Source: an uncultured Planctomycetota bacterium
GTDB lineage: Bacteria > Planctomycetota > PLA2 > JAEUHO01
Assembly (NCBI GenBank): GCA_963752285.1
Contig: CAVVXN010000005.1
Span: 1,184,001 to 1,248,000, forward strand
Reading direction: 5' to 3'
DNA length: 64,000 nucleotides
The notes below the pieces were generated by a model. That model made no database searches and was not told the DNA's origin. It was given only the letters and a program-made list of their open reading frames with translations. Positions 33,197 to 52,647 of the stretch are shown here, one piece after another; within the stretch, counting starts at the first letter, position 1; each line of letters opens with the position of its first letter. Both the position numbers and the translations under genes were made by a program.

Positions 33197-33288
33197 CCGC
33201 TGCTCCCTCGCCGGACCGGGCACTCCGGCCTCCCGACCGCCCCGTTCCCCACAGACCGTACCGCCGCGGCGGCTGTCATGATGGGCGC

Positions 33289-34640: not shown

Positions 34641-35035
34641 CCTCGGATCGTACGCGTCCCCGCCGACGCTCGCGCGTCCGGGCGAGCGGTCGGCCGGGAC
34701 CGGTCCGGCGCGTCGCGCCCCGACCGCTCGCACGTCGTTCTCGAAACGGCCGAAACGCGTTCGGAGACGCGTCCGTGACGGGCCGCGCGATGGTCGGCCC
34801 GGGGACGCGTCGGCGCCCCCGGGGAGGCGAGTTTCCGGCGCGTCCGCGTGACGGGCACGTGACAGCGCACCCGTAACAGAGGTCGCGTTCCGGGTCCGAG
34901 CGGGACTCGAGGGCCCGGCGCCCGCCGTCGGAGGGACGGCGCGCGTCGGGGAGTCGGCGGAGGGACGCAGCGGCGGTCGCCGCGCGTGGCCTCCTCGGCG
35001 TCCTGCCGCTCGAAGCCGGAACGGTGGAGTCCGGG

Positions 35036-38000
35036 ATGAAGCGCAACGTCCTCGTCCTATTCGTCGTCACCCTCGGCCTCTCGATCGCGGCCTGTCGCGG
35101 ACGACGGAGCCTCGTCGTGGAGGAGGCCCAGGCGCCCGAGGCGGCGCCGACCTCCGGCATGAAGAACCCGAAGGCCGGCGACGTCGAGGTGATCTCGCGC
35201 CGGCCGGTGCCCGCGCCGAACGCGCCGGCCGAGTCCGACGTCGTGGTGATCCCCGATCAGACCGCGCCGTCGTCGGGCGACGTCGCGATGGTGCCGGACG
35301 GCGGGCCGGCCGCCCAGCCGGCCGCCGCCGGCGACACGGACGAAAACGAGGCGGGCGAGAACGAAGCGGGCGAGCATGACGCGGGCGAGCCGGAAGCGGG
35401 CGAGGACGACGCCGGCGAGGCCCCGCCCGCCGGCGCAGCGCCCGCCGCGCCTTCCGGGGACGACGCCCAGCGTCTCCTCGACGAGGCGAAGAAGCGCGCG
35501 GCCGTGGAGGCGCAGAAGCGCGACGCGCTCGTGCAGAGCTTCCTGGTCAAGGCGAAGCAAGCCGAGGGCGACGGCGACCTCGACGCCGCCCGCGATCTCT
35601 ACGGCAAGGCCTTCGACCTCGACCCGACGAACGTCCAGGCGCGCGAGGGCGTCGAGCGCCTGACCATGGAGCGCCCGAGCACCGTCGGCGAGTTCCTCGG
35701 CCGCACGCGCACCGCCGAGACCGTACGGCGCGAGCAGGCCGCCGCCGAGGTCCGCACGTACCTCGAGCAGGGCCGCACGATGGAGGCGCGCGAGGACTAC
35801 GCGGGCGCCATCGACCAGTACCAGCGGGCCCTGGCGATCGTGTCCTGGTACACGGACCAGCGCGACTTCGGCGTCACGGCGGACAAGGTCCGGGACCTCA
35901 TCGAGAACGCGAAGTACAAGCGCGACCTCGCCGCGCGCGTCTCCCGCCAAGACCAGATCAAGGCGGCCCAGGCGGAGCGCGAGCAGGAGCTCGTCTCGGA
36001 GCGCGAGCGCCGCATGGGCAAGATCCGCGCCTACTTCGAGGAGGCGCACCGCGCGTTCCAGCGCGGCGACTACGCGCTCGCTCGGGAGTACGCGAAGCAG
36101 ATCCAGAAGCTCGACCCGCAGAACAACGACGCCGAGCGACTCGTGTGCATCTCGTACGACGCGCAGCACCTCGACGACAGCGAGCGCGCGCGCATGATGT
36201 TCGCCGACCAGTGGAAGGCGGTCATGGAGGACATGGACCGGTCCCTCCTCCCGCAGGTCGAGACGGTCCAGTTCCCGAGCGACTGGCTCGACACGATCGC
36301 GCAGCGCGGTCCGCCGGTCATCGGCGACGAGCAGGCCGAGCAGGACTCGAGCGTCGCCCAGATCCTGACCACCCTCGAGTCGAAGCGCGTGAAGGGGCTC
36401 AGCTGGGAGAACGCGAACCTCGACCAGGTCGTCTCCTACCTCCGCACGATCACGGGCCTCAACTTCTTCATCACCCCCACCGTCCGCGCCGAGAAGTTCG
36501 ACGAGGTCTCGGTGACCTTGAGCCTCGACGACGTCTCCGTGAAGACGATCCTCGACCTCATCACGTCCCAGCACGAGCTGAAGTGGGAGCCGAAGGACGG
36601 CGTCGTGCGGATCGCCACGGGGGGCGAGGTCCGCGGGGACATGCTCCTCCGGTTCTTCGACGTGAAGGACTTGAACGTCCAGATCCGCAACTTCATCGGG
36701 CAGGAGATCAACCTCACGCCCTCGAACTTCACCCCGCCGGAGCCGCCCGAGCTGCCCGAGCCCACCGCCATCTACCCGGCGGACGGTCTCGTCGAGCTCA
36801 TCCGCGAGACGATCGGCAGCGAGGGGACCTGGGACGAGCCCGCGTCGATCGACACGAGGAACGGCGTGATCATCGCGCGCAACACCACCCCCATCCTCGA
36901 GCAGGTTCAGAAGCTCCTCGACGAGCTGCGCCGCAACAGCGGCATGCTGGTCAACCTCGAGGTCCGCTTCCTGACGGCGGAGGACAACTTCCTCCGCGAC
37001 GTCGGCGTAGACGTGCGCGGCCTGGGCGACAACTCGCAGGGCGTCGGTCAGCCGGGTCTCGGCACGCAGGTCGTCCAGGACGACATCTTCTTCGGCACGA
37101 GCGCACAGCCCTACGGCGTTCCGTTCGGCGTCTTCCCCGAGCCGTCCTCGGGCGGCACCTCGCACGACGCGGGCATCTTCTACAACGACGGCGCCGACGG
37201 CGCGTACAGCGGGCGCGTCGAGAACCTCTACGACCTGCTGCTCGGCAACCCCGACGTGCTGACCAGCACGGGCGGCCTGTCGTTCCAGAACACGTTCCTC
37301 GACGACACGCAGGTCGAGGTCATCCTCCGCGCGGTCGAGAAGAGCGAGCGCATCCAGCGCATCACCGCCTCGCGCATCACGGTGTACGACACGCAGCGCG
37401 CCACGATCTCGGTCCTGAACCAGGTCGCATACGTGGCCGACTACGAGGTCGAGATCGCGCAGGCGTCGAACATCGCGAACCCGGTGATCCAGACGATCCA
37501 GGACGGCATCGTCCTCGACGTCCGCCCCGTCGTGTCCTCGGACCGTCGGTTCATCCTCCTCGAGCTCCGCCCCACGGTGGCGCTCCTCACCCGCCCGATC
37601 GCGACGTTCAGCACGTCGCTGGCGTCCGGCCCCGGTCCGGTGTCCTCGTCCGCCCCGGTCATCATCCAGATCCCGGAGCTCCTCGTGAGCCGTGTCCGGA
37701 CGACCGTGGCGATGCCCGACGGCGGCACGCTGCTCCTCGGCGGCCTCAAGTTCTACGAGCAGGTCCACGAGGACACGGGCATCCCGTTCCTCTCGGACAT
37801 CCCCGTGGTGTCGCTCCTCTTCTCGCGGAAGGGGACGTACACGAACCGCCGCGACCTCCTGGTCCTCATCACCGCGCACATCGTCCCGCTCGAGGAGCTC
37901 GAGCCGAAGGACGACCTCGAGATCCCGGCGGCCCCCATCACGGAGTGGACACCCGTCCAACCGGTCGACGGCGCTCCCTCTGCGCCCCCCGCGCCCGCCC

Positions 38001-38098
38001 CGTGCGCCCCCTGCGCGGCGGGGAACGGGATGGGCGGCCCCGTCCTCATGCCGGCGACCGGCGCCCCCGCCGGCCCGCCGCCGGTCGTCCGCCGCTGA
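35036..38098 (+). CDS. Secretin-like lipoprotein 1 (TPR/coiled-coil N-terminus + secretin domain)
   Basis: Lipobox IAAC (Cys20), TPRs, EVRFL...DVGVD, DGIVLDVRPVVS.DRR, PDGGTLLLGGL, IPFLSDIPVVSLLFS, DLLVLITAHI. Confidence 0.88.
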   Translation: MKRNVLVLFVVTLGLSIAACRGRRSLVVEEAQAPEAAPTSGMKNPKAGDVEVISRRPVPAPNAPAESDVVVIPDQTAPSSGDVAMVPDGGPAAQPAAAGDTDENEAGENEAGEHDAGEPEAGEDDAGEAPPAGAAPAAPSGDDAQRLLDEAKKRAAVEAQKRDALVQSFLVKAKQAEGDGDLDAARDLYGKAFDLDPTNVQAREGVERLTMERPSTVGEFLGRTRTAETVRREQAAAEVRTYLEQGRTMEAREDYAGAIDQYQRALAIVSWYTDQRDFGVTADKVRDLIENAKYKRDLAARVSRQDQIKAAQAEREQELVSERERRMGKIRAYFEEAHRAFQRGDYALAREYAKQIQKLDPQNNDAERLVCISYDAQHLDDSERARMMFADQWKAVMEDMDRSLLPQVETVQFPSDWLDTIAQRGPPVIGDEQAEQDSSVAQILTTLESKRVKGLSWENANLDQVVSYLRTITGLNFFITPTVRAEKFDEVSVTLSLDDVSVKTILDLITSQHELKWEPKDGVVRIATGGEVRGDMLLRFFDVKDLNVQIRNFIGQEINLTPSNFTPPEPPELPEPTAIYPADGLVELIRETIGSEGTWDEPASIDTRNGVIIARNTTPILEQVQKLLDELRRNSGMLVNLEVRFLTAEDNFLRDVGVDVRGLGDNSQGVGQPGLGTQVVQDDIFFGTSAQPYGVPFGVFPEPSSGGTSHDAGIFYNDGADGAYSGRVENLYDLLLGNPDVLTSTGGLSFQNTFLDDTQVEVILRAVEKSERIQRITASRITVYDTQRATISVLNQVAYVADYEVEIAQASNIANPVIQTIQDGIVLDVRPVVSSDRRFILLELRPTVALLTRPIATFSTSLASGPGPVSSSAPVIIQIPELLVSRVRTTVAMPDGGTLLLGGLKFYEQVHEDTGIPFLSDIPVVSLLFSRKGTYTNRRDLLVLITAHIVPLEELEPKDDLEIPAAPITEWTPVQPVDGAPSAPPAPAPCAPCAAGNGMGGPVLMPATGAPAGPPPVVRR
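35342..35416 (+). repeat. Five 15-bp degenerate tandem units encoding E-x-[E/D]-A-G
   Basis: gaaaacgaggcgggc gagaacgaagcgggc gagcatgacgcgggc gagccggaagcgggc gaggacgacgccggc. Confidence 0.85.
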
Positions 38099-38114
38099 GC
38101 GACGACGACTCGTC

Positions 38115-38151
38115 GAACCGGCCGGTCGCGCGACGCGCGACCGGCCGGTTC
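38115..38151 (+). terminator. 37-bp palindrome downstream of secretin 1 (terminator-like)
   Basis: gaaccggccggtcgcgcg-a-cgcgcgaccggccggttc has perfect 18-bp arms and is followed by cgtttcgtc. Confidence 0.7.
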
Positions 38152-38213
38152 CGTTTCGTCGGCGGAGCTCGGGGTCCATCCCGCCCGGCGCCGGCGCCGT
38201 TCGCATCCGCCCC

Positions 38214-38242
38214 TTGCGTGCGTTCCCCCGGGGGGCTACACT
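38214..38242 (+). promoter_or_regulatory. Sigma70-type promoter P1
   Basis: TTGCGT-N17-TACACT. Confidence 0.6.
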
Positions 38243-38420
38243 CCCGAGTGAGCCCATTCGTCCGACCCACGTGTGGCCTCGTCCCCCATCTGGCGCGCGT
38301 CCGGACCTCGAGGAGGGACCGGAGTTGCCGGTGCCGATGGCCGCCACGTACCGACGGGATGCATCCGCTCGACGCGTGTCCGATCGCGGCGGCGCCGAGT
38401 CGCAGGGCTTCCCGGTCGCG

Positions 38421-38449
38421 TTGACCACCGTGACGCCGGTCCCTAGAAT
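38421..38449 (+). promoter_or_regulatory. Sigma70-type promoter P2 for the TPR-exbBD genes
   Basis: TTGACC-N17-TAGAAT, 5/6 match at both hexamers, which is notable in GC-rich DNA. Confidence 0.75.
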
Positions 38450-38722
38450 CCAGCGCCCGCGGGCCCGGCATCCCTCGAAGGACCCGATCGGAACCGCGTC
38501 CTGGTCTCGCTACGCGCCCTGGGCGCGGAACCGGGGACCAGGTCGCACGACCCGATGCCGGACCCTCGGCCCAGTCCGGGTGCCCCGTCGGCGGAGGCCC
38601 GCCCTGGGGCGCCGTTCGCCCTCCGCCTCGGATTCCCCCCGCCGCCCCCGACCTCCCCTCGCACGCCTCCCCTCCTCTCGTACGCACCCGGTCCCAGGAA
38701 CCCCTCCGGAGGACGTCTCGTC

Positions 38723-41700
38723 ATGACCGACCCCCTCTCGACCGCCCCGCGCCGGGGACGCCGCCGGATCTCGCTCGCGCTGCTCCTCCTGCTCGCTGGC
38801 CTCCCGCTCCTGCCCGCCCGCGCGGGCCCGGACGACTTCGAGTTCGGCAAGGAGCTCGCGAAGGCACGCTACTTCGACTACGCGCGGGAGGTCTTCGACT
38901 CCATCCTGTCGAGCTCGAAGTCGAGCGACGAGTCGAAGGACGAGGCTCGGTACGGCATAGCGCTCCTGAAGCGCGAGGAGGCGATCGCGGCGACCGCGCG
39001 CCAGGACGCGAAGCAGGAGGAGATCCAGTCGCTCTTCGAGTCGGCCGCACAGGACATCGAGCAGTTCGTCAAGAAGAACCCGAGCAACAAGAACGCGGAC
39101 GCGGCCCGCCTCGACGTCGGCCAGACCCGCCTCGCGTTCGTCCAGTGGGCGCGCGAGATGCTCGAGGACCCGGGCGAGATCGCCGATCGGGGGTACGACG
39201 CCGACAAGCTCCGGGCCGCGGCCGCGGACAGCGTCAAGAGGGCCATCGAGTACTTCGGGGGGCTGAAGCCCGCCGATACCGCGTCGAACCCGACCCCCCT
39301 CCAGGAGCTGGCGAACTACTACTACGTCATCTCCCAGTACTACGCCGCGCTGGTCGAGCCGCCCTGCTCGCCGAGCGCGGTGAGCAGCTTCACGAATGCC
39401 TCGGAGCTGCTCGACAACTACATCATGCTGCACGAAGGTCAGCTCCTCGCCGTGTACGCGATGGACATCCTCGGCCTCGTCTGGTGGGAGCGGGCCCGCT
39501 GCGAGCCCAACGACGAGGAGAAGACGAAGGACTACAACCAGGCCTACGAGTGGTTCGAGGCGTGCATCAACACGCCCGACGATGGCCCCGAGTACCTGCA
39601 GGTCATCGCGAGCGGCTACTACCACCTCGGGGAAGCCGGCCTCGACGCCGGCCCGCGGCCCCGCGGCCCCGGCGGCGGGAACTTCGCCCGCGATGCGCTG
39701 ACCGAGCTCGAGAAGATGAACACGCAGCACCCGACGGTGTGGCGCACCGACAGCGGGCTCCGCGCGATGCTCGAGTGGGCGAAGCTCGAGTGCCAGCGCG
39801 GGAACGCCCGGAACGCCGTCGCCATTGCGAACGACGCCGGCGCGCGCGCGCGCCAGGCGAGCAAGCCCTTCATCGAGCGCACGGCGAACCGCCAGCTCAC
39901 GGAGTTCGTCTCCGGCGGGTGCGGCGGCTCGGTGACCGGCCTCGACCCCGAGGTGCTCGGCCGCGTCGCGCAGGACTTCATGGCGCGGAGCAAGTACCCC
40001 GAGGCGATCCGCGCGTACCGCGGCGTCATCGCCTCCACGCCCAACACCCCGGAGGCGTTCGTCGCCTACCGCTGGGACGCCTGGCTGGAGATCGCGCGCG
40101 CGTACCTCAAGATGGACGACTCCCTCGGCTACGCCCTCGCGCTGGAGGCCATCCACGAGGCCTGGATCGACCGCCGGATCCCCCACGACCCCGAGAGCGG
40201 TCCCGCCTATCCGAACGAGGAGAAGGCCGCGGGCGCGCGCAAGCGGTCCGCGCAAGCGATGGATCAGATCGCCCAGGCGACGGGCAGCGTCACCTTCCAG
40301 AACGAGGCGAAGGCGATGCTCGAGTCGCTCGGCCCGAGCTATCCCCACTCCGGCATCGTGGACACGGTCAACTGGAACCTGGGACTCCAGAAGTTCACGG
40401 CCGCGCAGCAGATGAAGAACGGCGGGCAGACGGGGTGGGAGAAGCCCCTCGACGAGGCGCGCCAGCGCTTCCGCGCCGTCGCCGTGGACGACAAGTCCGA
40501 GCACCAGGACGAGGCGTGGGTGATGCTCGTCCGGGTCGAGAGCCTGGCCGACATGTACGAGGACGAGATCAAGATCGCTGAGGAGGCGGAGGCGTTCTGG
40601 GAGACGCCCGGGCACAAGGCGCAGGAGGACCGGTTCCCGACGATTCGTGCGCGGCGCGAGAAGGCCCGGTCGGAGGTCACCTACTTCCGGGGCGACGCGC
40701 TGAGCAAGCTGAAGCGGCCCGAGGAGGTCGTGAAGACCCTCGACGGATACCTGGAGAGGTACCCCACGGCGGCGCGGCCCTTCCCCTCCACGTACGTGCT
40801 CTCGACCCTGATCTCGGCCTACCTCGACCTGGGGAACGTCGAGAAGGCCGACACGCTGTACCGGACCCTTCTGCGTCGCGACCCGGACTTCCCGTACCTG
40901 AGCGGGGTCACCTTCAAGTTCGCCGACCGCTACAACGAGGCGCGGAAGAAGATCGAGACGGACCTGAGGGACGTGAAGGTCCAGTTGAACAAGCTCGGGC
41001 CGAAGCTCCGCGGCGAGGTGCAGACCGTCCAGACCCTGAGCCTCAACATCGCGGACGTGAGGAACCGGGTCACGAAGCTCGAGAACGCCCTCGCCCTCCA
41101 CAAGCACAACAAGGAGCTCGAGAAGCGGGGCGAGCAGATCACGCAGGGCGTGAGCCCGGAGCTCCTCACCGCCGCGCTCGAGGAGGAGAAGACCCAGGCC
41201 CAGCACAAGGAGCTGGAGAGCCTCAAGGTGCAGGTCCAGAAGGCGACGGAGCAGCGCGACGCCGACCAGAAGAGCATCGACGAGCTCGGGACGCGTCGCC
41301 ACGACCTCGAGCAGCAGATCTACGAGCCCCTCACGAAGGCCGCCGGCTACTACAAGGCGTGGGACGACACCCTGAAGACGCTCAAGGCCGACCGCGACCC
41401 CGACAACCTCGCGGTCTTCGGCTACATGTTCTACACGGCGGCGAAGCTGCGCCCCGCCGTCGCCGACAACTGGGTGAACGCGCGCGCGTTCTACGAGGAC
41501 TACCTCGCGAGCCCGAAGATCAAGGCCAAGCCCGGGACGGACGACGACAAGCGCGCCGCCGAGGCCCGCCTCGGCGACATCCTGGTGAACCTCGCCGAGT
41601 CCGAGACGAACGCGACGAAGCGCCAGCAGGACGTCACGCGCGCCGTGGACCTCCTCCAGGGCTCGATCGCCAACGCGCCCGAGGACAACGACCTCGTGGT

Positions 41701-42529
41701 CAGCATGCTCGCCAACAAGGTGCTGGTCCTGGTGTTCAAGGACACCGCCGGCACCGAACAGAGGGTCTGGCGCTTTGCGATCCCGCTCCCCTCCGACGTC
41801 AAGGGCGTCCGGGACGCCGTCGCGAAGATCGACAACAAGCAGGCGAACCCCTACTACCCGAACTTCTCCGCGGGGCAGTCCCAGGAGGAGAGCCAGTGGA
41901 AGACCGCCGTGAGTCGCTTCAAGACCCGACTGACGGCGACGAACGACCGGGTGCTCGCCGGGTTCATCCCCCAGCCGGGGCAGACGCCGTTCGACCCCTC
42001 GCTCTATCGCTCTCTCGCCAACTCCGCTTCGGAGTTCCGCATGGCGCTCGCGTGGGCGCTCGCGAGGACGGGACGGAACGAGGACGTGCCGAAGGCCGTC
42101 AACCTCTTCAACACGTTCCTCAAGGCGCCCCTCGCGGCCGAGGAGGACAGCGAGGACTTCTGGCGCGCCAGCTACGGGTTGATGCGCGTCTACGTGGACT
42201 TTGCCGAGCGGGGCCTGGCGGCCGGCCAGCCGGGTCCGGAGGTCAAGGAAGCCCTGGACAGCGCCGGGAAACTGATCGTCCAGCGCCACGCCTTCTATCC
42301 GAGCTTCGGAGACTCGGTGCTGGACGACAGCTCCACCCGGTGGAAGGAGATGCTGACGCGTCTGAACGACCTTCGGCGCAAGGTCCGGCTCGACCCGGTC
42401 ACCCTCGTGAAGGCGGCCGCCCTGGACACCGCCCCCCCCAGCGACGGAGGCGAGAAGCCGTCCGGCGCGTCCGCCCCCGAGCCGGGTGCGTCCTCGACCG
42501 GCGAGACGCCCAGCGACGGGAACAAGTGA
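38723..42529 (+). CDS. Exported 1268-aa TPR/alpha-solenoid protein with internal long coiled coil
   Basis: GGAGG + ATG 38723, signal peptide ending ARA-G, TPR-like helices (KYPEAIRAYR, GNVEKADTLY), heptad-rich segment at about 40930-41330. Confidence 0.85.
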   Translation: MTDPLSTAPRRGRRRISLALLLLLAGLPLLPARAGPDDFEFGKELAKARYFDYAREVFDSILSSSKSSDESKDEARYGIALLKREEAIAATARQDAKQEEIQSLFESAAQDIEQFVKKNPSNKNADAARLDVGQTRLAFVQWAREMLEDPGEIADRGYDADKLRAAAADSVKRAIEYFGGLKPADTASNPTPLQELANYYYVISQYYAALVEPPCSPSAVSSFTNASELLDNYIMLHEGQLLAVYAMDILGLVWWERARCEPNDEEKTKDYNQAYEWFEACINTPDDGPEYLQVIASGYYHLGEAGLDAGPRPRGPGGGNFARDALTELEKMNTQHPTVWRTDSGLRAMLEWAKLECQRGNARNAVAIANDAGARARQASKPFIERTANRQLTEFVSGGCGGSVTGLDPEVLGRVAQDFMARSKYPEAIRAYRGVIASTPNTPEAFVAYRWDAWLEIARAYLKMDDSLGYALALEAIHEAWIDRRIPHDPESGPAYPNEEKAAGARKRSAQAMDQIAQATGSVTFQNEAKAMLESLGPSYPHSGIVDTVNWNLGLQKFTAAQQMKNGGQTGWEKPLDEARQRFRAVAVDDKSEHQDEAWVMLVRVESLADMYEDEIKIAEEAEAFWETPGHKAQEDRFPTIRARREKARSEVTYFRGDALSKLKRPEEVVKTLDGYLERYPTAARPFPSTYVLSTLISAYLDLGNVEKADTLYRTLLRRDPDFPYLSGVTFKFADRYNEARKKIETDLRDVKVQLNKLGPKLRGEVQTVQTLSLNIADVRNRVTKLENALALHKHNKELEKRGEQITQGVSPELLTAALEEEKTQAQHKELESLKVQVQKATEQRDADQKSIDELGTRRHDLEQQIYEPLTKAAGYYKAWDDTLKTLKADRDPDNLAVFGYMFYTAAKLRPAVADNWVNARAFYEDYLASPKIKAKPGTDDDKRAAEARLGDILVNLAESETNATKRQQDVTRAVDLLQGSIANAPEDNDLVVSMLANKVLVLVFKDTAGTEQRVWRFAIPLPSDVKGVRDAVAKIDNKQANPYYPNFSAGQSQEESQWKTAVSRFKTRLTATNDRVLAGFIPQPGQTPFDPSLYRSLANSASEFRMALAWALARTGRNEDVPKAVNLFNTFLKAPLAAEEDSEDFWRASYGLMRVYVDFAERGLAAGQPGPEVKEALDSAGKLIVQRHAFYPSFGDSVLDDSSTRWKEMLTRLNDLRRKVRLDPVTLVKAAALDTAPPSDGGEKPSGASAPEPGASSTGETPSDGNK

Positions 42530-42551
42530 CGGACCCTTGGAGCAGCCTCAA

Positions 42552-43901: not shown

Positions 43902-43952
43902 GGCCGATGCGCCGGCGCCCCACCCCCCACCGTCCCGAAGCCCCGGAACATG

Positions 43953-43981
43953 TGGCACCGGACTCCGTCCGGCGGTACCCT
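43953..43981 (+). promoter_or_regulatory. Possible sigma70-type promoter for exbB
   Basis: TGGCAC-N17-TACCCT. AGGAG precedes ATG 44060. Confidence 0.35.
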
Positions 43982-44059
43982 TCCCGACTCGAAAACCAGC
44001 CCGTCCGAGCCCAGTCGCGGGAGGCCGGCGGGTTCCTTCTCTAGGAGCGGTCGCGCATC

Positions 44060-44767
44060 ATGACCAAGTCGCGCATCTTCACCCTCGCCTTGCTCGCGCT
44101 GGGGGGCGCCCTACTCCTCGCTTCACCGGCCCTGGCGCAGGAGGAGGAGAGCAGGAACGCCTTCTCTCACATCATCCAAGACGGCGGCCCCATCGGGATC
44201 GTCATCATCGTCCTCTCGGTCGCGACGCTCGCCCTGGTGATCGAGTACGGCGTCAACGTGCGCCGCGACAAGATCTGCCCCCCCGAGCTCGTGGACGAGC
44301 TCGAGGCGCTCCTCGAGGAGGAGGAGTACCAGGAGGCGCTCGAGCTCTGCGAGTCGGAGCCCAACTTCCTGACCAACTCCCTCGCCGCCGGCCTGCCCCG
44401 ACTGAACGAGGGGTACGCCAAGATGAAGGAGGCCATGGAGGCGCAAGCCGGGATCGAGGCGGTGAAGCTCCAGCAGAAGGTGGGCTGGATGCTCTTCCTC
44501 TCGAACGTGGCCCCCATGCTCGGCCTCTTCGGGACCGTGACCGGTATGATCTCGGCGTTCGACAAGATCGTCTCCCTCGGCGCGAAGGTCACGCCGAAGG
44601 ATCTCGCGGGCGGCATCTCGGCCGCGTTGATCACGACGTTCCTCGGTCTTCTCGTCGCGATCCCCGCCCTCTTTGCCTACCAGTACTTCCGCAACAAGGC
44701 GACCCGCATCTCGATCGACTTCGCGGGGATCCTGGAGGACATGACGGAACGATTCCGAAACCGCTAG
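44060..44767 (+). CDS. exbB: MotA/TolQ/ExbB proton channel protein
   Basis: APMLGLFGTVTGMISAF, LAGGISAALITTFLGLLVAIP. Confidence 0.93.
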   Translation: MTKSRIFTLALLALGGALLLASPALAQEEESRNAFSHIIQDGGPIGIVIIVLSVATLALVIEYGVNVRRDKICPPELVDELEALLEEEEYQEALELCESEPNFLTNSLAAGLPRLNEGYAKMKEAMEAQAGIEAVKLQQKVGWMLFLSNVAPMLGLFGTVTGMISAFDKIVSLGAKVTPKDLAGGISAALITTFLGLLVAIPALFAYQYFRNKATRISIDFAGILEDMTERFRNR

Positions 44768-44839
44768 CCGAACGCGGCCGCGGGTCCCGACCCCGATTCA
44801 CGTGCGCTGCTCGTCCGACCCGATGACCGGAGCCCCCCC

Positions 44840-45346
44840 ATGGCCTGGAAACGCCCGCGCGATGAGGACACCAAGCCCAACCTCACGCCGATGATCGACA
44901 TGACCTTCCTCCTGGTCGTGTTCTTCATGATCGCGATCGACCTGTCCCAGAAGGAGTTCCAGCCGGTCGAGCTGCCCTACGCCAAGAACGCGATACCGGA
45001 CAAGGAAGACCCCGACGTCAAGCGGCTCGTCATCAACCTGCTCGAGAGCGGCGACATCGTGTTCAAGAACTACGTCGGCAAGCTCGCCACGGGCTCGCCG
45101 GCGGAGCAGGCGGACGCGCTCGTCAATCTGAAGAAAGAGCTCGAGATCCTGACCGCCGACATCAAGCTGAAGGAGCCGGACGGCGCCAGCAAGGTCCCGG
45201 TGATGATCCACGGCGACCGCTCCGCGCGCTGGCAGTTCGTACAGTGGATCATGCAGGTGTGTGCCGATCCCCGCGTGCAGATCTACAAGATCCAGTTCGC
45301 GGTGAAGGGCCCGACGCCGAAGGAGAAGGCGGAGGGAGGGGGCTAG
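44840..45346 (+). CDS. exbD: ExbD/TolR family protein 1
   Basis: NLTPMIDMTFLLVVFFMI, V.LP.A, VMIHGDRSA.W. Confidence 0.92.
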   Translation: MAWKRPRDEDTKPNLTPMIDMTFLLVVFFMIAIDLSQKEFQPVELPYAKNAIPDKEDPDVKRLVINLLESGDIVFKNYVGKLATGSPAEQADALVNLKKELEILTADIKLKEPDGASKVPVMIHGDRSARWQFVQWIMQVCADPRVQIYKIQFAVKGPTPKEKAEGGG

Positions 45347-45461
45347 TGCGTCGCCCCCCCACCCCGCGCGGTGGTCTCGATTCCGGGCCGGGCTCCTCGC
45401 AGCCGGCCGTACGTGCCCGTCCGCGCCGCGCCGGCGGCGCCCCGTTCCGCTGGAGTCTCCG

Positions 45462-46037
45462 ATGGCGATGAAGATCCCCGAGTCCGACGAGACGGAAATG
45501 AACATGACGCCGATGATCGACGTCGTGTTCCAGCTGATCGTGTTCTTCATGCTCGTGCTCAAGTTCAAGAGCGTGGACCTGAGGATCCAGAGCGAGCTCC
45601 CGAAGAACAAGGGCATCCAGGCCACGAACCAGTTCGTGGACGAGAAGCCGATGATCACGGTGAAGCTCTTCAACCACGACACCGAGACGGACCACGCGTA
45701 CACGAAGATCCGCATCGGGAACAACTACGAGGTCAACCTGCCGAAGGGCAAGTGGTCGGGCATCGGCCAGGAAGACGAGAGACGCCTGGAGGAATACAAG
45801 CAGGCGAAGCAGCAGGTCGTTGCCGCGATCAAGGGGATGTGGACCCAGCTCGGTCAGAAGGACGAGACCCAGGGCGAGATCAAGACCCCGCCCCCCTTCG
45901 GACAGGGCGTGCCGAACGGCGACGTGATCATGGTGCTCGACGCGTTCCTCGAGGCCGGAGTGAAGAGCGTCGAGTTCGAGGGCGCGATGCCCCCGAACTT
46001 CCACGCCGGCCAGGGCGGCGTGATCGAGCGCAACTGA
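45462..46037 (+). CDS. exbD: ExbD/TolR family protein 2
   Basis: NMTPMIDVVFQLIVFFML, VIMVLDAFLEAGVKSVEF. Confidence 0.9.
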   Translation: MAMKIPESDETEMNMTPMIDVVFQLIVFFMLVLKFKSVDLRIQSELPKNKGIQATNQFVDEKPMITVKLFNHDTETDHAYTKIRIGNNYEVNLPKGKWSGIGQEDERRLEEYKQAKQQVVAAIKGMWTQLGQKDETQGEIKTPPPFGQGVPNGDVIMVLDAFLEAGVKSVEFEGAMPPNFHAGQGGVIERN

Positions 46038-46198
46038 GCGGTCGGGCCGCCTGACGGCCCGCGGCGGGGGCGCGACGTGCGTGCGCCTTCGTCGTCGGCT
46101 CCGTCCTCCGGACGGGGCCTCCCGACGACCGGCGCGTCGCGCCGGTGGGATCCGACCCGGAGAGCGACCCGGCGCGCGTCGGGCCGGGAGGTCGGACC

Positions 46199-46729
46199 AT
46201 GACCGCCTCACGCTTCGAGGAAGAGAACGCGAATCCCGGGGACTTCCTCACCCCGATGATCGACGTCGTCTTCCAGCTGATCGTCTTCTTCCTCTTCACG
46301 CTCCGGTTCCGCTCGCTCGACCGTCGCATCGAGAGCGAGCTGCCGCGCGACGGTCCGTGCCCGTCGCCGGTCTTCGTGAACGAGCCCCCGACGGTGAAGG
46401 TGGCCTGCTTCCGCGTGGACCCCGCCGGACCGCGACCCTTCACGCGCCTCCGCCTCGGCGCGCGGACCGTGGACCTGCCCCCCGTCCCCGAGTTCGATCG
46501 CGGCGCCCGGGCGGACGTCGTCCAGGCGGTTCGTGACCTGGAGGCGCGACTCGGCGATCCGCCGGCCGTGAAGGGCGAGATCCGGACCCCGCCGCCGTTC
46601 GGGCCGGCCGTGCCGCACGGCGACGTCGTCTTCGTGCTCGACGCGCTGCTCGAGGCCGGGATCGCGGACGTGACCTTCGAGGGATCCCCCTTGCCCCTGC
46701 CCGCTCCGCCGCCGCCCGCCCGGAGGTGA
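46199..46729 (+). CDS. exbD: ExbD/TolR family protein 3 (paralog of ExbD2)
   Basis: LTPMIDVVFQLIVFFLF, VVFVLDALLEAGIADVTF. GGAGG before ATG 46199. Confidence 0.88.
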   Translation: MTASRFEEENANPGDFLTPMIDVVFQLIVFFLFTLRFRSLDRRIESELPRDGPCPSPVFVNEPPTVKVACFRVDPAGPRPFTRLRLGARTVDLPPVPEFDRGARADVVQAVRDLEARLGDPPAVKGEIRTPPPFGPAVPHGDVVFVLDALLEAGIADVTFEGSPLPLPAPPPPARR

Positions 46730-48627
46730 GCGCCCTCCTTGCCTCGGGCCCCTCCCGGGGCGAGGCTCGGGGCCTCGTGCGAACCCGCGTCCTACTCGTC
46801 CTGGCGGTCGCCGCCGCGGCGGCCTCCCTCGTCCTCTGGCGACCGTGGGCCCGATCGCGGGCCCCCGGCGTCCGGACCCTCGTGCTGGTCACGCTCGACA
46901 CGACGCGCCGAGACCACGTGGGCACGTACGCCCCGACCGACCGGGCGACGGGCGTTCCGGACGCCTCGACGCCGAACCTCGACCGTCTCGCCGCCTCGGG
47001 CGTTCGCTTCGACGACGCGATGACGCCGGTCCCGCTGACCCTCCCCGCGCACACCGCGATGCTCTCGGGTCTGCCGCCCGCCGCGACCGGGGTCCGCGTG
47101 AACGCGTACGGCCGGATCCCCGACGCCTCGGTCCGCGGCTTCGCGCTCCTTCCCGAGTCGCTCGCGGCCGCGGGCTGGAAGACGGGCGCGTTCGTCTCGG
47201 CCAGCCCACTCGCCCGCCGCTACGGCCTCGACCACGGGTTCGGGACCTACGACGACGGCGATCTCGAGGACCCGCACGGCCTCGAGTGCGCGGAACGGGC
47301 GGGCGCCGTAACCGTGGACCGCGCGCTCGCCTGGCTCGCCCTGCGCACCGGGACGGAGCGCGTGTTCCTCTGGGTGCACCTCTTCGAGCCGCACGCGCCG
47401 TACGCGCCCGAGGCGCCGGCGGGCCTCCCCGCGGACACGCGCTACCGCCTCGACGTCGCCCGGGCGGACGCGGCGGTCGGCCGTCTCCTCGAGGGTCTCG
47501 CGGCGCGGGGACGCGGCGACGCCGCGGTGCTGGTGGTCGCCGACCACGGCGAGGCGCTCGACGAGCTCGGCGAGAAGACCCACGGCATCCTGCTCGGAGA
47601 CGCCGTCCTCCGGGTGCCGATGCTCCTCCGCGCCCCGGGGCTCCTACCGGGCGTTCGGACCGACCCCGCCGACCTCGCGGACGTGGCCCCGACGCTCGCG
47701 CACCTCGCGAACCTCCCGTGGGACCCGCACGCCGAGGTCGTCGGTCACGGCCAGGACCTCCTCCGCGCGCCGGCACCCGCCGACCGGGTCCGCGTGGCGG
47801 AGTCGCTGTACGCAAACCAGCTCCACGGGTGGGCCCAGCTCCTCGCCGCGACGGGCCCGGACGGCGGGACGCTCGTGGACGCGGGCGCCGACCGCCTCCG
47901 GTGGCTCGTCCGCGCCCCCTTCGGCGACCCGCAGGCCGCGCCCGGTCCCCCGGGCCACCCCGAGGGCCTCGCGCGTCTCGGCGACGCCCTTCGCCGCTAC
48001 CGGCAGGGCGAACGCGCGGACCGGATCCAGGCCGGCGACGTTCCCTCGGGGTACAGCGCGGCGGCGCGGGTCGCGCCCTTCCTGGACCCGGTCGAGAACG
48101 CGCGACGACCCGACCCCTACGCCTCGATCGACCGGCACTTCCTGCTCGACCGCGAGAAGGAGCGGCTCCTCGCGGGGGCGTCCCCCACGGACGTGGTGAA
48201 CGCGCTCGAGCGGCTGGCCGGCCAGGACCCGCACGACATGGAGGTCCGGTTCTGGATCGGGAACGCCTGGGCCCGGGAGGCCGCCCGGCGCGACGGAAGC
48301 GGGGCCGGGCCGGCCGAGGTGCGCGAGGCCCTCGGGCAGGCGGAGGCGTCGTACGTCCGGGCGCTCGAGAACGGACGGCGCGACCCGACCACCCTCGTCC
48401 TCGCCGCGGGCACCAACGCCAGGGACCGCGAGGCGGAGATGCTCGACCGGCTCGACCGGTGGGCGCCGGAGGTCGAGCCGGACTACCGGGTCCCGGCGCT
48501 CCGCGCGCGCCTGCTCGAGAGCCTCGGCCGGACCGCCGACGCCGGGCGTGCCTGGGGGAAGGCGGAGACGCTCACCCGCTCCCCTTCCGAGCGACGCGCG
48601 CTCGAGCGACTCCGCCATCCCCGTTGA
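46726..48627 (+). CDS. Sulfatase-like (alkaline phosphatase superfamily) hydrolase with C-terminal TPR-like region
   Basis: N-terminal TM, VTLDTTRRDH, TPNLDRLA..G, LTLPAHTAMLSG, WVHLFEPHAPY, ADHGE, THG. Confidence 0.87.
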   Translation: MSALLASGPSRGEARGLVRTRVLLVLAVAAAAASLVLWRPWARSRAPGVRTLVLVTLDTTRRDHVGTYAPTDRATGVPDASTPNLDRLAASGVRFDDAMTPVPLTLPAHTAMLSGLPPAATGVRVNAYGRIPDASVRGFALLPESLAAAGWKTGAFVSASPLARRYGLDHGFGTYDDGDLEDPHGLECAERAGAVTVDRALAWLALRTGTERVFLWVHLFEPHAPYAPEAPAGLPADTRYRLDVARADAAVGRLLEGLAARGRGDAAVLVVADHGEALDELGEKTHGILLGDAVLRVPMLLRAPGLLPGVRTDPADLADVAPTLAHLANLPWDPHAEVVGHGQDLLRAPAPADRVRVAESLYANQLHGWAQLLAATGPDGGTLVDAGADRLRWLVRAPFGDPQAAPGPPGHPEGLARLGDALRRYRQGERADRIQAGDVPSGYSAAARVAPFLDPVENARRPDPYASIDRHFLLDREKERLLAGASPTDVVNALERLAGQDPHDMEVRFWIGNAWAREAARRDGSGAGPAEVREALGQAEASYVRALENGRRDPTTLVLAAGTNARDREAEMLDRLDRWAPEVEPDYRVPALRARLLESLGRTADAGRAWGKAETLTRSPSERRALERLRHPR

Positions 48628-48884
48628 CGCGGCGGTGACACTCCCGGCCCCGCGAACGCGCCGCGGAGCCTCGATTCGCCCGAAGTCGTTTTCAGGCCGG
48701 GACGTATGACCAAGCCATGACCGCTCTCGGGTGATCTACGCCGGTCCAGGGAGGAGGTTCTCGGCGTCGGCGAGTGGCGGGCGAGGGCCCGCGGTCGCGC
48801 CGTCGTCCGGTCCTCGCGACGAGGATCTCGTCCTCGCGCCAGGAGACCACCTCCCGCAGAGGCTTTGCAGAGCAGGAGATCGGC

Positions 48885-51776
48885 ATGCACAGGGACGTGC
48901 GTAGCTCGCTCGGTTCCGCGCTCGTGGTCGCGACGCTCGCCTTCACCGCCTGTCACGGTCGCCGACAGATCGCGGTGTCGCCTGCGGCGCCGATGGCCGC
49001 CCAGCCCGCGGCGACGCCGTCTTCGGGCGGTCCGACGCCCGGAGAGCTCGCCGCGAAGGCCGGCGACGTCGTGATCGTCTCGCGCCGTCCGGTCCCGACC
49101 GCCGCCGAGCCCGGCGCGGCCGCGCCGCCCGCGAGCCCGATGCCCGCGCCCGCCGCGGCCCCGTCGGGCGAGCCCGCGGCGCCGGCCGGAGAGGCGGGCC
49201 CGGAGGCGGGACCCGGCGCCCTGCTCGGCGACGTCCGACTCCGCTCCGCCGTCGAGCGCGACAAGGTGCAGTTCGTCGTCCAGCAGAAGCTGCAGTCCGC
49301 CAAGGACGAGGAGCTCAACGGCAACTACGCCGCCGCCGAGCGTCTGCTCCTCGACGCCCAGGAGCTCGACCCGACGAACACCGACGTGCGCACCGAGCTC
49401 CGACTCGTGCAGGCGTACCTCGGCCGCCGCTCCGCCACCGCGGGCGACTTCCTCGAGACCGTGCGCCAGGTGCAGAAGGTGCGGATCGACGAGCAGCGCA
49501 CCACCGCGAGCAAGCTGGTCAACCTCGCGCGTCAGAACCTCCAGGGTCGGCGGTACGACGACGCGATCGACAACTTCGAGCAGGCGCTCTTCATCATCAC
49601 CTCTTCGCCGTACGACGTGGACTGGGGCGGCCTCAAGGAGCAGGCCGAGCAGGGGCTCCGCAACGCGAAGCAGATGAAGCAGGAGGCCCAGCGCGCCGAG
49701 CACCGCGCGTCGGTCGAGAGCTCCCTCGAGAACATGGCCCAGGCCGAGGAGCAGCGCCTGCTCGCCGAGCAGCAGCAGCTCGAGCGTCTCATGGGCTCCG
49801 CGATCGAGGCCTTCGACCGCGACGACTTCGAGCACGCCGAGTTCTACGCCGGCAAGGTGCTCGACGTGCAGCCCGACAACACGAAGGCCCGCGACCTCCA
49901 GCTCGCCGCGCGCCGCGCCCACCACGACCAGGTCGAGGGCGACTACCTCATCGAGGAGAAGCGCCACTTCCGCGAGTGGATGGACGACATCGAGGCCACG
50001 CGCATCCCGCAGGACAAGATCCTCAAGTGGCCCAGCCAGTCGTTCTGGGACCACATCTCCGAGGTCCGGCGCGCCACGCGTGCCAGCTTCGGCGCGGTCG
50101 AGGTGGACCCCGAGGCCGACGCACTCCGCGCGAAGCTCCGCACGACGACCGTGAACCTCCAGGTCCAGGACCAGCCCTTCGAGGACGTGGTGAAGCTCCT
50201 CTCGATCCAGACGGGCATCAACCTCACGATCGACGCGCGGATCAAGAGCGACATCGGGCAGAACCCCGTCGCGAGCCTCCAGGCCGAGGACCTCCCGCTC
50301 TCGACCGTGCTCGACCTCCTCAAGCAGTCCGCCGGCGAGGACGCCGTGTGGACCGTCAAGGGAAACGTCGTCCTCTTCACGAACAAGACCCTCTTGAAGC
50401 CGCCCCTCACCGTGCAGCTGCACGACGCGGCGGACCTCACCACGGGCCTGCCCGACTTCATCCCGCCCAACATCCAGATCGTGAACCCCGACATGGTGTC
50501 CGACGAGGAGCACCCCCTCTTCGGCGCCGAGGGCGAGGAGCCGCGGCTCCCCTACGGCACGATCGACGAGCTCATCGAGCTCATCAAGGGCGCGGTCGAG
50601 CCCAAGTTCTGGGACGAGACCGAGGGCGCGGAGATCCGGGCCCAGGGCGAGCACACGCTGGTCGTGAAGGCGACCGACCCGATCCAGGAGAAGGTCGAGA
50701 GCTTCCTGAACGACCTGAGGGCGTTCGCCGGGATCGTCGTGACGATCGAGACCCGGTTCCTCGAGGTCGGCGACTACTTCCTCCGCGACGTCGGCGTCGA
50801 CTGGCGCGGGCTCGGCGGCCAGACGCCCGGTCCGCTCGTCAACCTCGACGACGTGACGAACGGGCTCGTGAACGGCGCGTCGGCCGGCTACGACAACGGC
50901 GGCGGCGGCCTCACCACGGGCGCCGCGCTGAACCCGTCTTCGGGCGTGTACTTCAGCGACGGCCACGAAGGTGACATCCGGGCCCGGACGGAGAACATCT
51001 TCAACAACAGCCTCGGGACGGTGCTCTCGTCCCTCGGCGGCGCGAGCTTCACGTTCTCGTACCTCGACGACACCGACATCTCGATGATCTTGAGGGCCAC
51101 GCAGAAGTCCGCCCTCGCGAAGTCGCTGACCGCCCCGAAGATCACCGTCTTCAACACGCAGCGCGCGAACCTGACGGTGGTGAACCAGCTCTCCTACATC
51201 CAGGACTTCGACGTCGAGGTCGCGCAGACCTCCTTCATCGCGGACCCGATCGTCGGCATCATCCAGGACGGCCTTACGCTCGACGTCCGGCCGACCGTCT
51301 CGAACGACCGGCGGTACATCACGCTCGAGCTCCAGCCCACCGTCGCGAAGCTCTCCCAGCCCATCCCGACGTTCGCCACCACCCTGGCGTCGTCGTTCAC
51401 CCCCGTCATCATCCAGCTGCCCGAGCTGAGGCTCCAGCAGGCCCGCGTGACCGTGCGGATCCCGGACCGCGGCTCGATCCTGATCGGCGGCCTCAAGAAC
51501 ATCACCACGGTGGACCGCCAGTCCTCGACGCCCTGGCTCGCGAACGTACCGATCCTCTCGTTCTTCTTCAGCCGCAAGGGCCGGAGCGACGAGGTCACGC
51601 ACCTGATGATCATCGTTCGCGCCGAGATCACGGACCTGCACGAGCAGGAGCAGTCGGTCATGGGGACGACCGGCGGACCGGGCGAGCGCGTGGCGCTCCC
51701 CCCCACGCCCTTCCACATGGACGCGTTGCCGCCGAACCCCTGCGAGGTCACGACGCCTCCGCCGCCGGTGAAGTGA
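48885..51776 (+). CDS. Secretin-like lipoprotein 2 (paralog of secretin 1)
   Basis: AGGAG + ATG 48885, lipobox FTAC (Cys23), TPRs, ETRFL...DVGVD, DGLTLDVRPTVS.DRRY, PDRGSILIGGL, PWLANVPILSFFFS. Confidence 0.88.
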   Translation: MHRDVRSSLGSALVVATLAFTACHGRRQIAVSPAAPMAAQPAATPSSGGPTPGELAAKAGDVVIVSRRPVPTAAEPGAAAPPASPMPAPAAAPSGEPAAPAGEAGPEAGPGALLGDVRLRSAVERDKVQFVVQQKLQSAKDEELNGNYAAAERLLLDAQELDPTNTDVRTELRLVQAYLGRRSATAGDFLETVRQVQKVRIDEQRTTASKLVNLARQNLQGRRYDDAIDNFEQALFIITSSPYDVDWGGLKEQAEQGLRNAKQMKQEAQRAEHRASVESSLENMAQAEEQRLLAEQQQLERLMGSAIEAFDRDDFEHAEFYAGKVLDVQPDNTKARDLQLAARRAHHDQVEGDYLIEEKRHFREWMDDIEATRIPQDKILKWPSQSFWDHISEVRRATRASFGAVEVDPEADALRAKLRTTTVNLQVQDQPFEDVVKLLSIQTGINLTIDARIKSDIGQNPVASLQAEDLPLSTVLDLLKQSAGEDAVWTVKGNVVLFTNKTLLKPPLTVQLHDAADLTTGLPDFIPPNIQIVNPDMVSDEEHPLFGAEGEEPRLPYGTIDELIELIKGAVEPKFWDETEGAEIRAQGEHTLVVKATDPIQEKVESFLNDLRAFAGIVVTIETRFLEVGDYFLRDVGVDWRGLGGQTPGPLVNLDDVTNGLVNGASAGYDNGGGGLTTGAALNPSSGVYFSDGHEGDIRARTENIFNNSLGTVLSSLGGASFTFSYLDDTDISMILRATQKSALAKSLTAPKITVFNTQRANLTVVNQLSYIQDFDVEVAQTSFIADPIVGIIQDGLTLDVRPTVSNDRRYITLELQPTVAKLSQPIPTFATTLASSFTPVIIQLPELRLQQARVTVRIPDRGSILIGGLKNITTVDRQSSTPWLANVPILSFFFSRKGRSDEVTHLMIIVRAEITDLHEQEQSVMGTTGGPGERVALPPTPFHMDALPPNPCEVTTPPPPVK

Positions 51777-51800
51777 CCGCGGCACACCCGAGAAGCTCCT

Positions 51801-51826
51801 CGAGGCCCGGCGAAAGCCGGGCCTCG
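51801..51826 (+). terminator. GAAA-tetraloop hairpin after secretin 2
   Basis: cgaggcccggc-gaaa-gccgggcctcg, an 11-bp perfect stem with no U tract. Confidence 0.6.
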
Positions 51827-51889
51827 TCGTAGACGGGCGCGTCGTCCCCCGTCGCACGGCCCGGGTCGCGGGGCTGGTACATTCGCGCC

Positions 51890-52627: not shown

Positions 52628-52647
52628 GGCCGTGTCACGCGGCGACC

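Follow-up and report, generated by a model that had tools for sequence, protein, structure and literature searches.

In a 64,000-nucleotide window, the whole stretch of DNA analysed here from an uncultured Planctomycetota bacterium (contig CAVVXN010000005.1, positions 1,184,001 to 1,248,000), a block of co-oriented genes at 35036–51776 places a proton-motor module of the TolQR/ExbBD type between two lipoprotein secretins (liposecretins). All genes of the block lie on the plus strand, each in a frame supported by third-position GC content (GC3), and they encode, in order, liposecretin 1 (sec1), two secreted TPR proteins (bigTPR and TPR2), a TolQ/ExbB-like channel subunit, three ExbD/TolR-like subunits (ExbD1, ExbD2, and ExbD3), a membrane-anchored sulfatase-fold protein, and liposecretin 2 (sec2). 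Judged by gene order, this twin-secretin bracket is kept in one lineage: it is seen in the related loci L001 and L003–L005, on six further contigs of 14–66 kb, and, rearranged, in L007. The parts are of known kinds, and the motor/TPR module is partly in print for the Planctomycetes–Verrucomicrobia–Chlamydiae (PVC) group; the bracket of twin liposecretins is new. We favour, at a probability of roughly 40%, a reading in which the secretins are assembled, positioned, or gated with the help of the motor/TPR module. Within this reading, we infer a heterodimeric ExbD, an output through the TPR proteins, any contact with a secretin, and what passes the pores.

Relatives were found by searching genome contigs with an ExbB alignment, which gave at least 80 loci; these are a sample, on which all locus counts rest, and they were read by tblastn, custom hidden Markov models (HMMs), and Pfam scans. 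Loci L003, L004, and L005, in which ExbB is 45%–49% identical to that of the window and the secretins ~36%, keep the order UDG-sec1-bigTPR-TPR2-ExbB-ExbD-ExbD-sec2-HAD, where UDG is a family-4 uracil-DNA glycosylase and HAD a hydrolase of that family; L001 (83%) keeps the same order as far as the third ExbD, where its contig stops. Because the arrangement recurs in relatives with ExbB only 45%–49% identical, it is, on this comparison of gene orders, more than chance. The initial annotation of this DNA had made its proposal depend on secretins and exbBD remaining syntenic in relatives, and this was borne out in all four of the nearest loci with enough flanking DNA (L001, L003, L004, and L005), as well as in the rearranged L007. 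In this last locus, from a low-GC member of the Planctomycetota (GC 38%; ExbB 43% identical), ExbB-ExbD-ExbD is accompanied 2 kb off by a divergent secretin-family gene; the N-terminal 476 residues are all that precede the contig end, and they match the HMM at E 1.4e-39 in an alignment that is collinear into the N0 domain.

Among the matches listed, relatives of ExbB and of sec2 share six contigs (14208, 26232, 28798, 47158, 61900, and 65500 bp), contig sharing being inferred from equal contig sizes across three protein searches made independently. Locus tags put sec2 six genes away from TPR2 on the contig of 26,232 bp. Seven of the 14 sec2-clade contigs of 10–100 kb match an ExbB or TPR2 contig, again among the matches listed, and 6/15 match when those matches are counted from the ExbB side, misses being uninformative since contigs end. 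The secretins themselves form two orthologue clades, sec1 and sec2, each with 100/100 support and both with identical inner topology; because the clades share that topology, the secretin duplication is, as the trees read, older than the split of these genomes, with both copies kept in place as an old, position-stable pair.

The flanks of the block are conserved too. The UDG gene (33963–34733, minus strand; Pfam UDG E 5.3e-41; NCBIfam UDG_fam4 201 bits, cut-off 125) adjoins sec1 in L001 (123–1094), L003 (226–1179), L004 (1562–2485), and L005 (1–531), its orientation being flipped between two groups, and is probably a conserved neighbour of the block rather than a working part of it. Downstream, the HAD-family hydrolase gene (51890–52627, plus strand; Pfam Hydrolase/HAD_2; NCBIfam TIGR02253 175 bits, cut-off 170) comes after sec2 in L003, L004, and L005 as well. 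As a separate observation, DNA glycosylase genes adjoin TolQR modules across the PVC group: the family-4 UDG in the lineage of the window, and Nth/HhH-GPD in L036 and in four loci of Verrucomicrobia (L026, L032, L040, and L041), in each case immediately upstream of ExbB.

Genes were called by the GC3 frame, then by Pfam, and then by NCBIfam, in a window of ~73% G+C. The TolQ/ExbB-like proton-channel subunit (44060–44767; 235 aa) has an N-terminal signal-peptide-like segment and matches the MotA/TolQ/ExbB channel family (PF01618, MotA_ExbB) at E 4.9e-28 and 97.9 bits (cut-off 22.9), with the conserved Thr and Pro of the second and third transmembrane (TM) helices; its channel motifs GLFGTV and ...TT..G....IPA align with TolQ, and these columns are invariant in 24 relatives. 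Among NCBIfam models, it scored 83 bits for TolQ (cut-off 221) versus 47 bits for ExbB, both far under the equivalog cut-offs, and in a profile search of PDB, 56.7 bits for TolQ versus 43.6 for ExbB; it thus scores best as a relative of TolQ, to which the sequence appears nearest. At least 120 relatives are found at 62%–91% identity. The ExbB tree places the window within a Planctomycetota group of the PVC half, where every locus has two ExbD genes, while the other half (Proteobacteria and others) has one. The ExbB gene was therefore placed outside the single-ExbD genes of Ton/Tol type, with which the initial annotation had allowed that it might group, and no TonB-like gene was found beside any member of its own group.

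All three ExbD/TolR-like proteins match PF02472 (ExbD; cut-off 25.4 bits) and carry the TM Asp: ExbD1 (44840–45346; 168 aa; E 1.2e-14, 54.9 bits), ExbD2 (45462–46037; 191 aa; E 6.8e-11, 42.8 bits), and ExbD3 (46199–46729; 176 aa; 32 bits, over the N-terminal TM part only). The TolR model of NCBIfam scored 37 bits against a cut-off of 127. Residues 13–51 of ExbD1 align with residues 18–55 of Escherichia coli ExbD, which places D20 on what we take to be D25 of the latter. ExbD2 carries an insertion in its periplasmic domain, and its PDB profile matches are to ExbD over the TM part (2.7e-10) and to TolR over the periplasmic one (5.3e-5). Across PVC loci, the types that ExbD1 and ExbD2 represent (D1 and D2) are distinct and conserved, D1-type orthologues occurring in all PVC loci with two ExbD genes. 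Two further variants were seen among the relatives: L006 carries four tandem ExbD paralogs (10682–13382), the fourth of 304 aa with a degenerate N terminus, and L036 has an ExbB with an N-terminal TIG/IPT domain (2328–3347).

ExbD3 shares 45% identity with ExbD2, and a third ExbD also starts at the contig end of L001, with none in L003–L005; on sequence, ExbD3 is a lineage-specific duplicate of ExbD2. An open reading frame (ORF) at 46081–46536 that had been taken for ExbD3 lies in the wrong frame, the GC3-supported gene being that at 46199–46729. Next to it, the sulfatase-fold gene (46726–48627, start codon uncertain; Pfam Sulfatase E 3.5e-29) encodes a protein of the alkaline-phosphatase superfamily with one N-terminal TM helix, which lacks His, and a helical C-terminal part; it is not present in L003–L005. 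G+C over ExbD3 and the sulfatase-fold gene (46038–48627) is 0.765, versus 0.648 in the neighbouring motor genes, and the two genes have the appearance of a duplication with an insertion that is particular to the sub-lineage of the window.

The first TPR protein, bigTPR (38723–42529; 1268 aa), is secreted and TPR-rich, with TPR matches in Pfam. Cleavable signal peptides were seen on bigTPR, on TPR2 (42552–43901; 449 aa), and on the orthologues of both; none of these proteins showed a TM helix of TonB type, and in bigTPR and its orthologues there was no TM helix with His. HMM matches identify bigTPR orthologues in L001–L006; its NCBIfam matches are to YbgF and PPR repeats only (tol_pal_ybgF E 1.7e-7), and its Atlas look-alikes are TPR clusters of ~600–1100 aa from Planctomycetota, Verrucomicrobiota, and Kiritimatiellota (scores 0.92–0.93), those of the TPR proteins in general coming from the PVC group only. 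TPR2 has no Pfam match and no NCBIfam family at E<=0.01. Its AlphaFold2 (AF2) model (pLDDT 94.5, pTM 0.89) predicts a TPR solenoid with a small beta domain ahead of it at the N terminus, a structure for which Foldseek returned generic TPR folds only (best, the TPR of LGN, TMq 0.43), as did a PDB profile search, in which CpoB was among the matches (6g5s, E 0.0028). There are 51 TPR2 relatives at E<=1e-5, and a TPR2 HMM match adjoins ExbB in 12 of the 25 loci of the Planctomycetota clade. A supposed kinship of the TPR2 beta domain with a 527-aa protein at 8684–10264 was dropped, no likeness having been found.

Within sec1 (35036–38098; 1020 aa; Pfam Secretin E 3.6e-26 at 770–954), a signal peptide with a lipobox Cys is followed by a low-complexity tether, a helical/TPR region, an N0/STN-like domain, and the secretin barrel; the protein also matches TPR_2 and, weakly, STN in Pfam, and in NCBIfam the Amuc_1098 family at 110 bits, well under its cut-off of 750, besides PilQ, MshL, and GspD. 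For sec2 (48885–51776; 963 aa; Pfam Secretin E 4.8e-23), an AF2 model built on an 80-sequence alignment (pLDDT 73.5) gives a disordered tether (24–111), a helical region with long helices (111–371), an N0-like domain (385–520), an N3-like domain (560–615), and a barrel (617–917). Its best Foldseek match is the T4b liposecretin BfpB (9u5s, 2.9e-21), then PilQ (1.4e-20) and GspD. Pfam scores, model, and Foldseek thus agree on a C-terminal secretin barrel behind N0/N3-type domains. The lipobox reads ...SIAAC in sec1 and ...AFTAC in sec2, and a lipobox-like L/A-x-x-C occurs in both window secretins and in 8/8 of the locus orthologues read; sec1 and sec2 are accordingly predicted to be self-piloting lipoprotein secretins of the type IV pilus (T4P)/type II secretion system (T2SS) kind.

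The sec2 family is broad, with 455 relatives at E<=1e-10. Its N-terminal module defines a large family (642 representatives at E<=1e-3), and Pfam Secretin was found on 53 of the 55 full-length representatives of this family, the exceptions being P0319 and P0411. A strand-like motif, KAGDVxVxSRRPVP, which resembles a Ton box, is common to the tethers of sec1 (35180–35225) and sec2 (49060–49100), which are otherwise unrelated low-complexity sequence; as a family feature, this motif was rejected, its regular expression matching just 3 of 80 family members, of which one is unrelated. Many members of the window's secretin clade have, behind the lipobox Cys, a run of the form C-[RHQ]-G-R-R-x-[IV]-[VA]-V.

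Known liposecretins and pilus secretins resemble this pair in part. HxcQ and BfpB likewise have an N-terminal lipobox on a secretin, and BfpB is the best structural match of sec2; self-piloting of HxcQ is cited in the available text of PMC12475490. In the Amuc_1098 pilus secretin family of the PVC group, which sec1 matches weakly, TPR likewise lies ahead of the secretin domain. The block differs from all of these in having two paralogs, a long disordered tether with long helices, and a TolQR motor rather than pilus genes as neighbours.

The search for a transducer covered ~43 gene-sized ORFs of the window and was not an exhaustive six-frame scan. In these ORFs, no Pfam match was found for TonB_C, TolA, TolB, Pal/OmpA, Plug and the TonB-dependent receptors, VWA, or T2SSE; nor was there a match to TonB_C or TolA in 236 ORFs of 34 related loci, or to TonB_C, TolA, TolB, Pal, or VWA within 10 kb of the block in L001 and L003–L005. 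What the initial annotation had described from the letters alone (the co-oriented cluster of two secretins, two TPR proteins, exbB, three exbD, and a sulfatase-like gene; the TM Asp kept by every ExbD, which is seen in ...TPMID... of each; and a window free of TonB/TolA, TolB/Pal, TonB-dependent receptors, and secretion ATPases) was thus confirmed within this scope, with one coordinate, that of ExbD3, corrected. Because the block contains no TM transducer, the output of the motor would pass via the ExbD periplasmic domains onto the secreted TPR proteins, or else through an unlinked transducer.

Compared with the classical systems, the block lacks the defining partners. TonB and its receptors, which make a Ton system, were found neither in the window nor in the 34 related loci, and the available text of PMC3422733 reports them missing from most of the Planctomycetes examined. 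The Tol-Pal system with CpoB (YbgF) is alike in its TolQ-like channel subunit and its attached TPR protein; however, the window ORFs gave no match to TolA, TolB, or Pal (OmpA-like), the TolQ and TolR scores lie under the equivalog cut-offs, and the block has two or three TolR paralogs. Closest are the PVC tolQ-tolR-tolR-vWA clusters, described in the available text of PMC12204202 as a gene for a TPR protein, one resembling tolQ, two heterologous tolR-like genes, and a vWA transducer, with the function left open. Like these, the block has one tolQ-like gene and two dissimilar tolR-like genes with a TPR gene immediately upstream (TPR2-ExbB-ExbD1-ExbD2, in a row) and has neither TonB nor TolA; unlike these, it has no vWA protein whose TM helix is of the SHLS type (a TM-anchored protein of sulfatase fold, its TM helix devoid of His, follows the ExbDs), and it has in addition the 1268-aa TPR protein and the two bracketing liposecretins. 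The word 'secretin' does not occur in the available text of PMC12204202, and the literature searched (supplements excluded) yielded no account of secretins next to a TolQR/ExbBD module in this phylum. Among the relatives, some Phycisphaerae-type loci add vWA genes, and vWA genes were seen in L010, L015, L024, and L030; L024, where PilP-PilQ-aro genes lie near vWA-ExbB-ExbD, was set aside as what we take to be the well-known pilMNOPQ-aroKB neighbourhood.

Two further systems are alike in part. In Pseudomonas aeruginosa, PocAB-TonB3 is likewise a motor of the ExbB/ExbD type with no part in nutrient import, and PilQ and PilO depend on it for correct placement; in the available text of PMC5285504, PocA is required for recruitment of both proteins and a contact between TonB3 and N0 is suggested. 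It differs in that Poc has TonB3, a single ExbD-like subunit, and no TPR partners, and is not encoded beside pilQ. A TPR scaffold around the MotAB stators of Campylobacter jejuni (PDB 9hmf) is alike in that TPR proteins hold 5:2 motors in the periplasm, and 9hmf_K is among the fold matches of TPR2, at rank 24 (TMq 0.33). It differs in its flagellar context, and the likeness to TPR2 is that of generic TPR only. The TPR proteins of this scaffold are presumably PflA and PflB.

Terminators and promoters were read as sequence-pattern matches, which are not evidence of transcription. A terminator-like hairpin directly follows the stop codon of sec1 (38115–38151, plus strand; 17-bp GC stem, -51.5 kcal/mol, z -5.2), with 0/200 shuffles as good, and a hairpin occurs at the same place in L001 (z -4.4, with a T-run), L005 (z -5.3), L003 (z -2.4), and L004 (z -2.0). 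The sole sigma-70-like match in 34000–53000, where shuffles give a mean of 0.3, lies ahead of bigTPR (TTGACC-17-TAGAAT, 38421–38449, plus strand). Between the last motor gene and sec2, no terminator-like hairpin was found in the window (z +0.7) or in L003–L005 (z -1.1, +0.5, and +0.5, respectively). After the sec2 stop codon, the window has a hairpin with an 11-bp stem (51801–51826, plus strand; z -2.3), which is strong in L003 (z -4.25), with none significant in L004 and L005. The pattern fits three putative transcription units: [sec1], [bigTPR ... sec2], and [HAD]. A sigma-54 promoter consensus gave 0 matches at <=1 mismatch (chance mean 1.3), and words shared among the eight intergenic regions were GC-rich 10-mers only.

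On the favoured reading, the block would encode a PVC-type 5:2 proton motor that works without TonB, composed of one TolQ-like and heterologous TolR/ExbD-like subunits (D1 with D2 or D3), whose periplasmic partners would be the secreted bigTPR and TPR2. Motor and anciently duplicated liposecretins, inherited as one block, would work together, with the periplasmic domains of the ExbDs and the TPR proteins passing the motor's action on to the secretin rings at their periplasmic face; the effect would be their assembly, right placement, or gating, as with PocAB-TonB3 for PilQ, though without TonB. A functional tie to the secretins is favoured because the bracket is old and stable, because L007 joins the two in another arrangement, because no terminator precedes sec2, and because PocAB-TonB3 provides a precedent (PMC5285504).

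Several observations weigh against such a tie. The initial annotation had proposed that a dedicated motor may act on the secretins, and such dedication does not hold in general: the same TPR-TPR-TolQ-TolR-TolR module occurs without a secretin of this family in 12 Planctomycetota-clade loci of at least 15 kb, and Verrucomicrobia loci have ExbB-ExbD-ExbD followed by a ~1000-aa TPR protein, likewise without secretins. Within the DNA at hand, just 6 of the 25 ExbB loci of the Planctomycetota clade have such a secretin, and L006 groups with L003–L005 (88/85) yet has none. The conserved unit is therefore, as the sampled loci indicate, bigTPR-TPR2-TolQ-TolR-TolR, PVC-wide and usually without an adjoining secretin. 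The flanking UDG and HAD genes equal the secretins in conservation, which makes gene order by itself poor evidence of function; a single origin of the six secretin-linked ExbB genes is not rejected (approximately unbiased test, p 0.18), and the bracket may be a single inherited arrangement in collinear genomes of one lineage. In addition, sec1 has its own terminator-like hairpin in 5/5 genomes, the same promoter hexamers and spacing stand ahead of bigTPR in L001 (4384–4412), and gaps of 260–470 nt ahead of sec2 leave room for a promoter of its own. Finally, the rest of the genome may encode TonB or a transducer of the vWA type described in PMC12204202.

Nearly as likely as the favoured reading is that two unrelated systems are simply neighbours, the secretins being the pores of an ATP-driven pseudopilus or T4P-like machine and TPR-TolQ-TolR-TolR an envelope system general to the PVC group, either Tol-like or served by an unlinked transducer, so that the block is inherited gene order. 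The initial annotation had set the secretins apart from the secretion machinery to which they normally belong; this stood as regards the ATPase, T2SSE being unmatched in the window, and failed otherwise, for PilM-like, PilO-like, and four or five prepilin-type genes do occur at 2807–19841 on the minus strand, 15–30 kb upstream. They are part of a pseudopilus or T4P-like gene set on that strand (2807–25090), which comprises minor pseudopilins with prepilin N termini (10224–~10560 and 10634–~11830), a prepilin+LamG gene (11893–13110), a GspG-like pseudopilin gene (13101–~13720), a 2xFHA-TM protein (19919–22450; Pfam FHA), a T2SSG-containing 1031-aa protein, a TPR protein of 1003 aa that has three TM helices, and a sigma-54 activator carrying FHA and GAF domains. 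Pfam matches in this cluster are to T2SSG, N_methyl, PilM_2, and FHA, with further T2SSG and PilO matches sub-threshold, and the PilM-like gene matches the Amuc_1101 family of NCBIfam weakly at 134 bits and pilM at 112 bits. The secretins may belong to this cluster because it has no secretin, ATPase, or platform gene of its own (T2SSE and T2SSF were both unmatched in the window scan); on that account, the ATPase and platform genes would lie elsewhere. It gains from the weak matches of sec1 and the PilM-like gene to the Akkermansia pilus families Amuc_1098 and Amuc_1101, from T4P/T2SS proteins (BfpB, PilQ, and GspD) being the nearest solved relatives of the secretins, and from the size of the stand-alone family that joins the N-terminal module to a secretin (642 representatives), as well as from the rarity of secretins beside PVC motor modules, the equally conserved flanks, and the hairpin behind sec1. 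However, secretins are kept on both sides of the motor at 45%–49% ExbB identity, with the DNA of L004 beyond UDG and HAD being different; in L007 the two are associated in a different layout; the 10 kb around the block in L003–L005 contain no pilus genes; and no hairpin separates the motor genes from sec2.

A canonical energiser, with a TonB, TolA, or vWA-type transducer encoded elsewhere, TPR proteins as CpoB-like accessories, and the secretins uninvolved, is unlikely. Its case is the ExbB profile, nearest to TolQ; the weak CpoB/YbgF likeness of the TPR proteins (bigTPR at E 1.7e-7, TPR2 by profile to 6g5s at E 0.0028); and the PVC TPR-tolQ-tolR-tolR-vWA clusters in the available text of PMC12204202, together with vWA genes adjoining related modules in L010, L015, and L030. 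Against this, no TonB_C, TolA, TolB, Pal, or VWA match was found in the window or within 10 kb of the block in L001 and L003–L005, all scores are far under the family cut-offs, and TonB is reported absent from most Planctomycetes examined, as the available text of PMC3422733 has it. We consider it very improbable that the block is a surface machine like Agl-Glt/Nfs of Myxococcus xanthus, in which secretins would take the place of the Glt barrels or serve as nozzles for slime, for gliding or polymer export. The two systems share one TolQ-like and two TolR-like subunits and large periplasmic TPR proteins, bigTPR (~1200 aa) and TPR2 (~450 aa) being similar in size to GltD and GltE; a GT2 glycosyltransferase, methyltransferases, and an AsnB-type amidotransferase are encoded just upstream of the block. 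Secretins form slime nozzles in cyanobacteria and myxobacteria, according to the available text of PMC12475490, and a core complex with the same subunit count, aglRQS with gltD, E, G, and C, is described in PMC3169522; however, it is reported there from Proteobacteria and Fibrobacteres, and the string 'Planctomycet' does not occur in the available part of that text. Moreover, Glt has TonB-like GltG/GltJ and outer-membrane beta-barrels rather than secretins, and the block encodes no TonB-like TM protein of GltG/GltJ type. Neither NCBIfam nor Atlas gave a sequence-level link to Glt proteins: the GltG model matched only the FHA domains of 19919–22450 (the presence of GltD/GltE models in NCBIfam was not checked), TPR2 has no family there at E<=0.01 and bigTPR only YbgF and PPR repeats, and the Atlas look-alikes are confined to the PVC group.

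Elsewhere in the window, the stretch between the pilus-like cluster and the block (25538–33930) may be a surface-polymer locus: it encodes a 1371-aa TPR protein (weak PrsT/PEP-CTERM TPR match, 76 bits) and, with the GT2 glycosyltransferase, two methyltransferases and the AsnB-type amidotransferase, which has a weak XrtA/PEP-CTERM match. A 740-aa ORF at 61779–63998 (minus strand), in a good coding frame and with no Pfam or NCBIfam match, adjoins Opp transporter genes. Rfam and tRNA scans of the window gave no matches. Among the loci sampled, L045 (7364–20409; Omnitrophota, of the single-ExbD lineage) has an 855-aa TPR protein, ExbB, and ExbD directly upstream of PilM...PilQ-PilB-PilC-pilin, a further instance of such a motor beside a secretin.

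The boldest form of a functional link, and an improbable one, would be a TonB-independent trans-envelope gate energised by the proton motive force, in which a TolQ-TolR1/TolR2 motor pulls or turns bigTPR/TPR2 struts docked on the TPR/N0 vestibules of two liposecretin rings, opening both for two-way traffic of fibres or macromolecules. If true, it would offer a molecular candidate for the crateriform-structure and fibre system, by which Planctomycetes take whole polysaccharides into an enlarged periplasm and whose players were still called unknown in 2025 (available text of PMC12673574 and PMC5394234); a search for literature linking 'crateriform' and 'secretin' gave nothing relevant beyond a survey of polysaccharide degradation. 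More generally, Planctomycetes are mostly without TonB, according to the available text of PMC3422733, yet keep a highly conserved TolQ/TolR-type motor with TPR partners. Should the link to the secretins be functional, this would be the first 5:2 proton motor coupled to secretin pores with no TonB-like transducer in between, and would give a handle on how large outer-membrane pores are placed or opened, perhaps for polymer import. Should it not be, the unit to study would be bigTPR-TPR2-TolQ-TolR-TolR, which is present in genetically tractable Planctomycetia.

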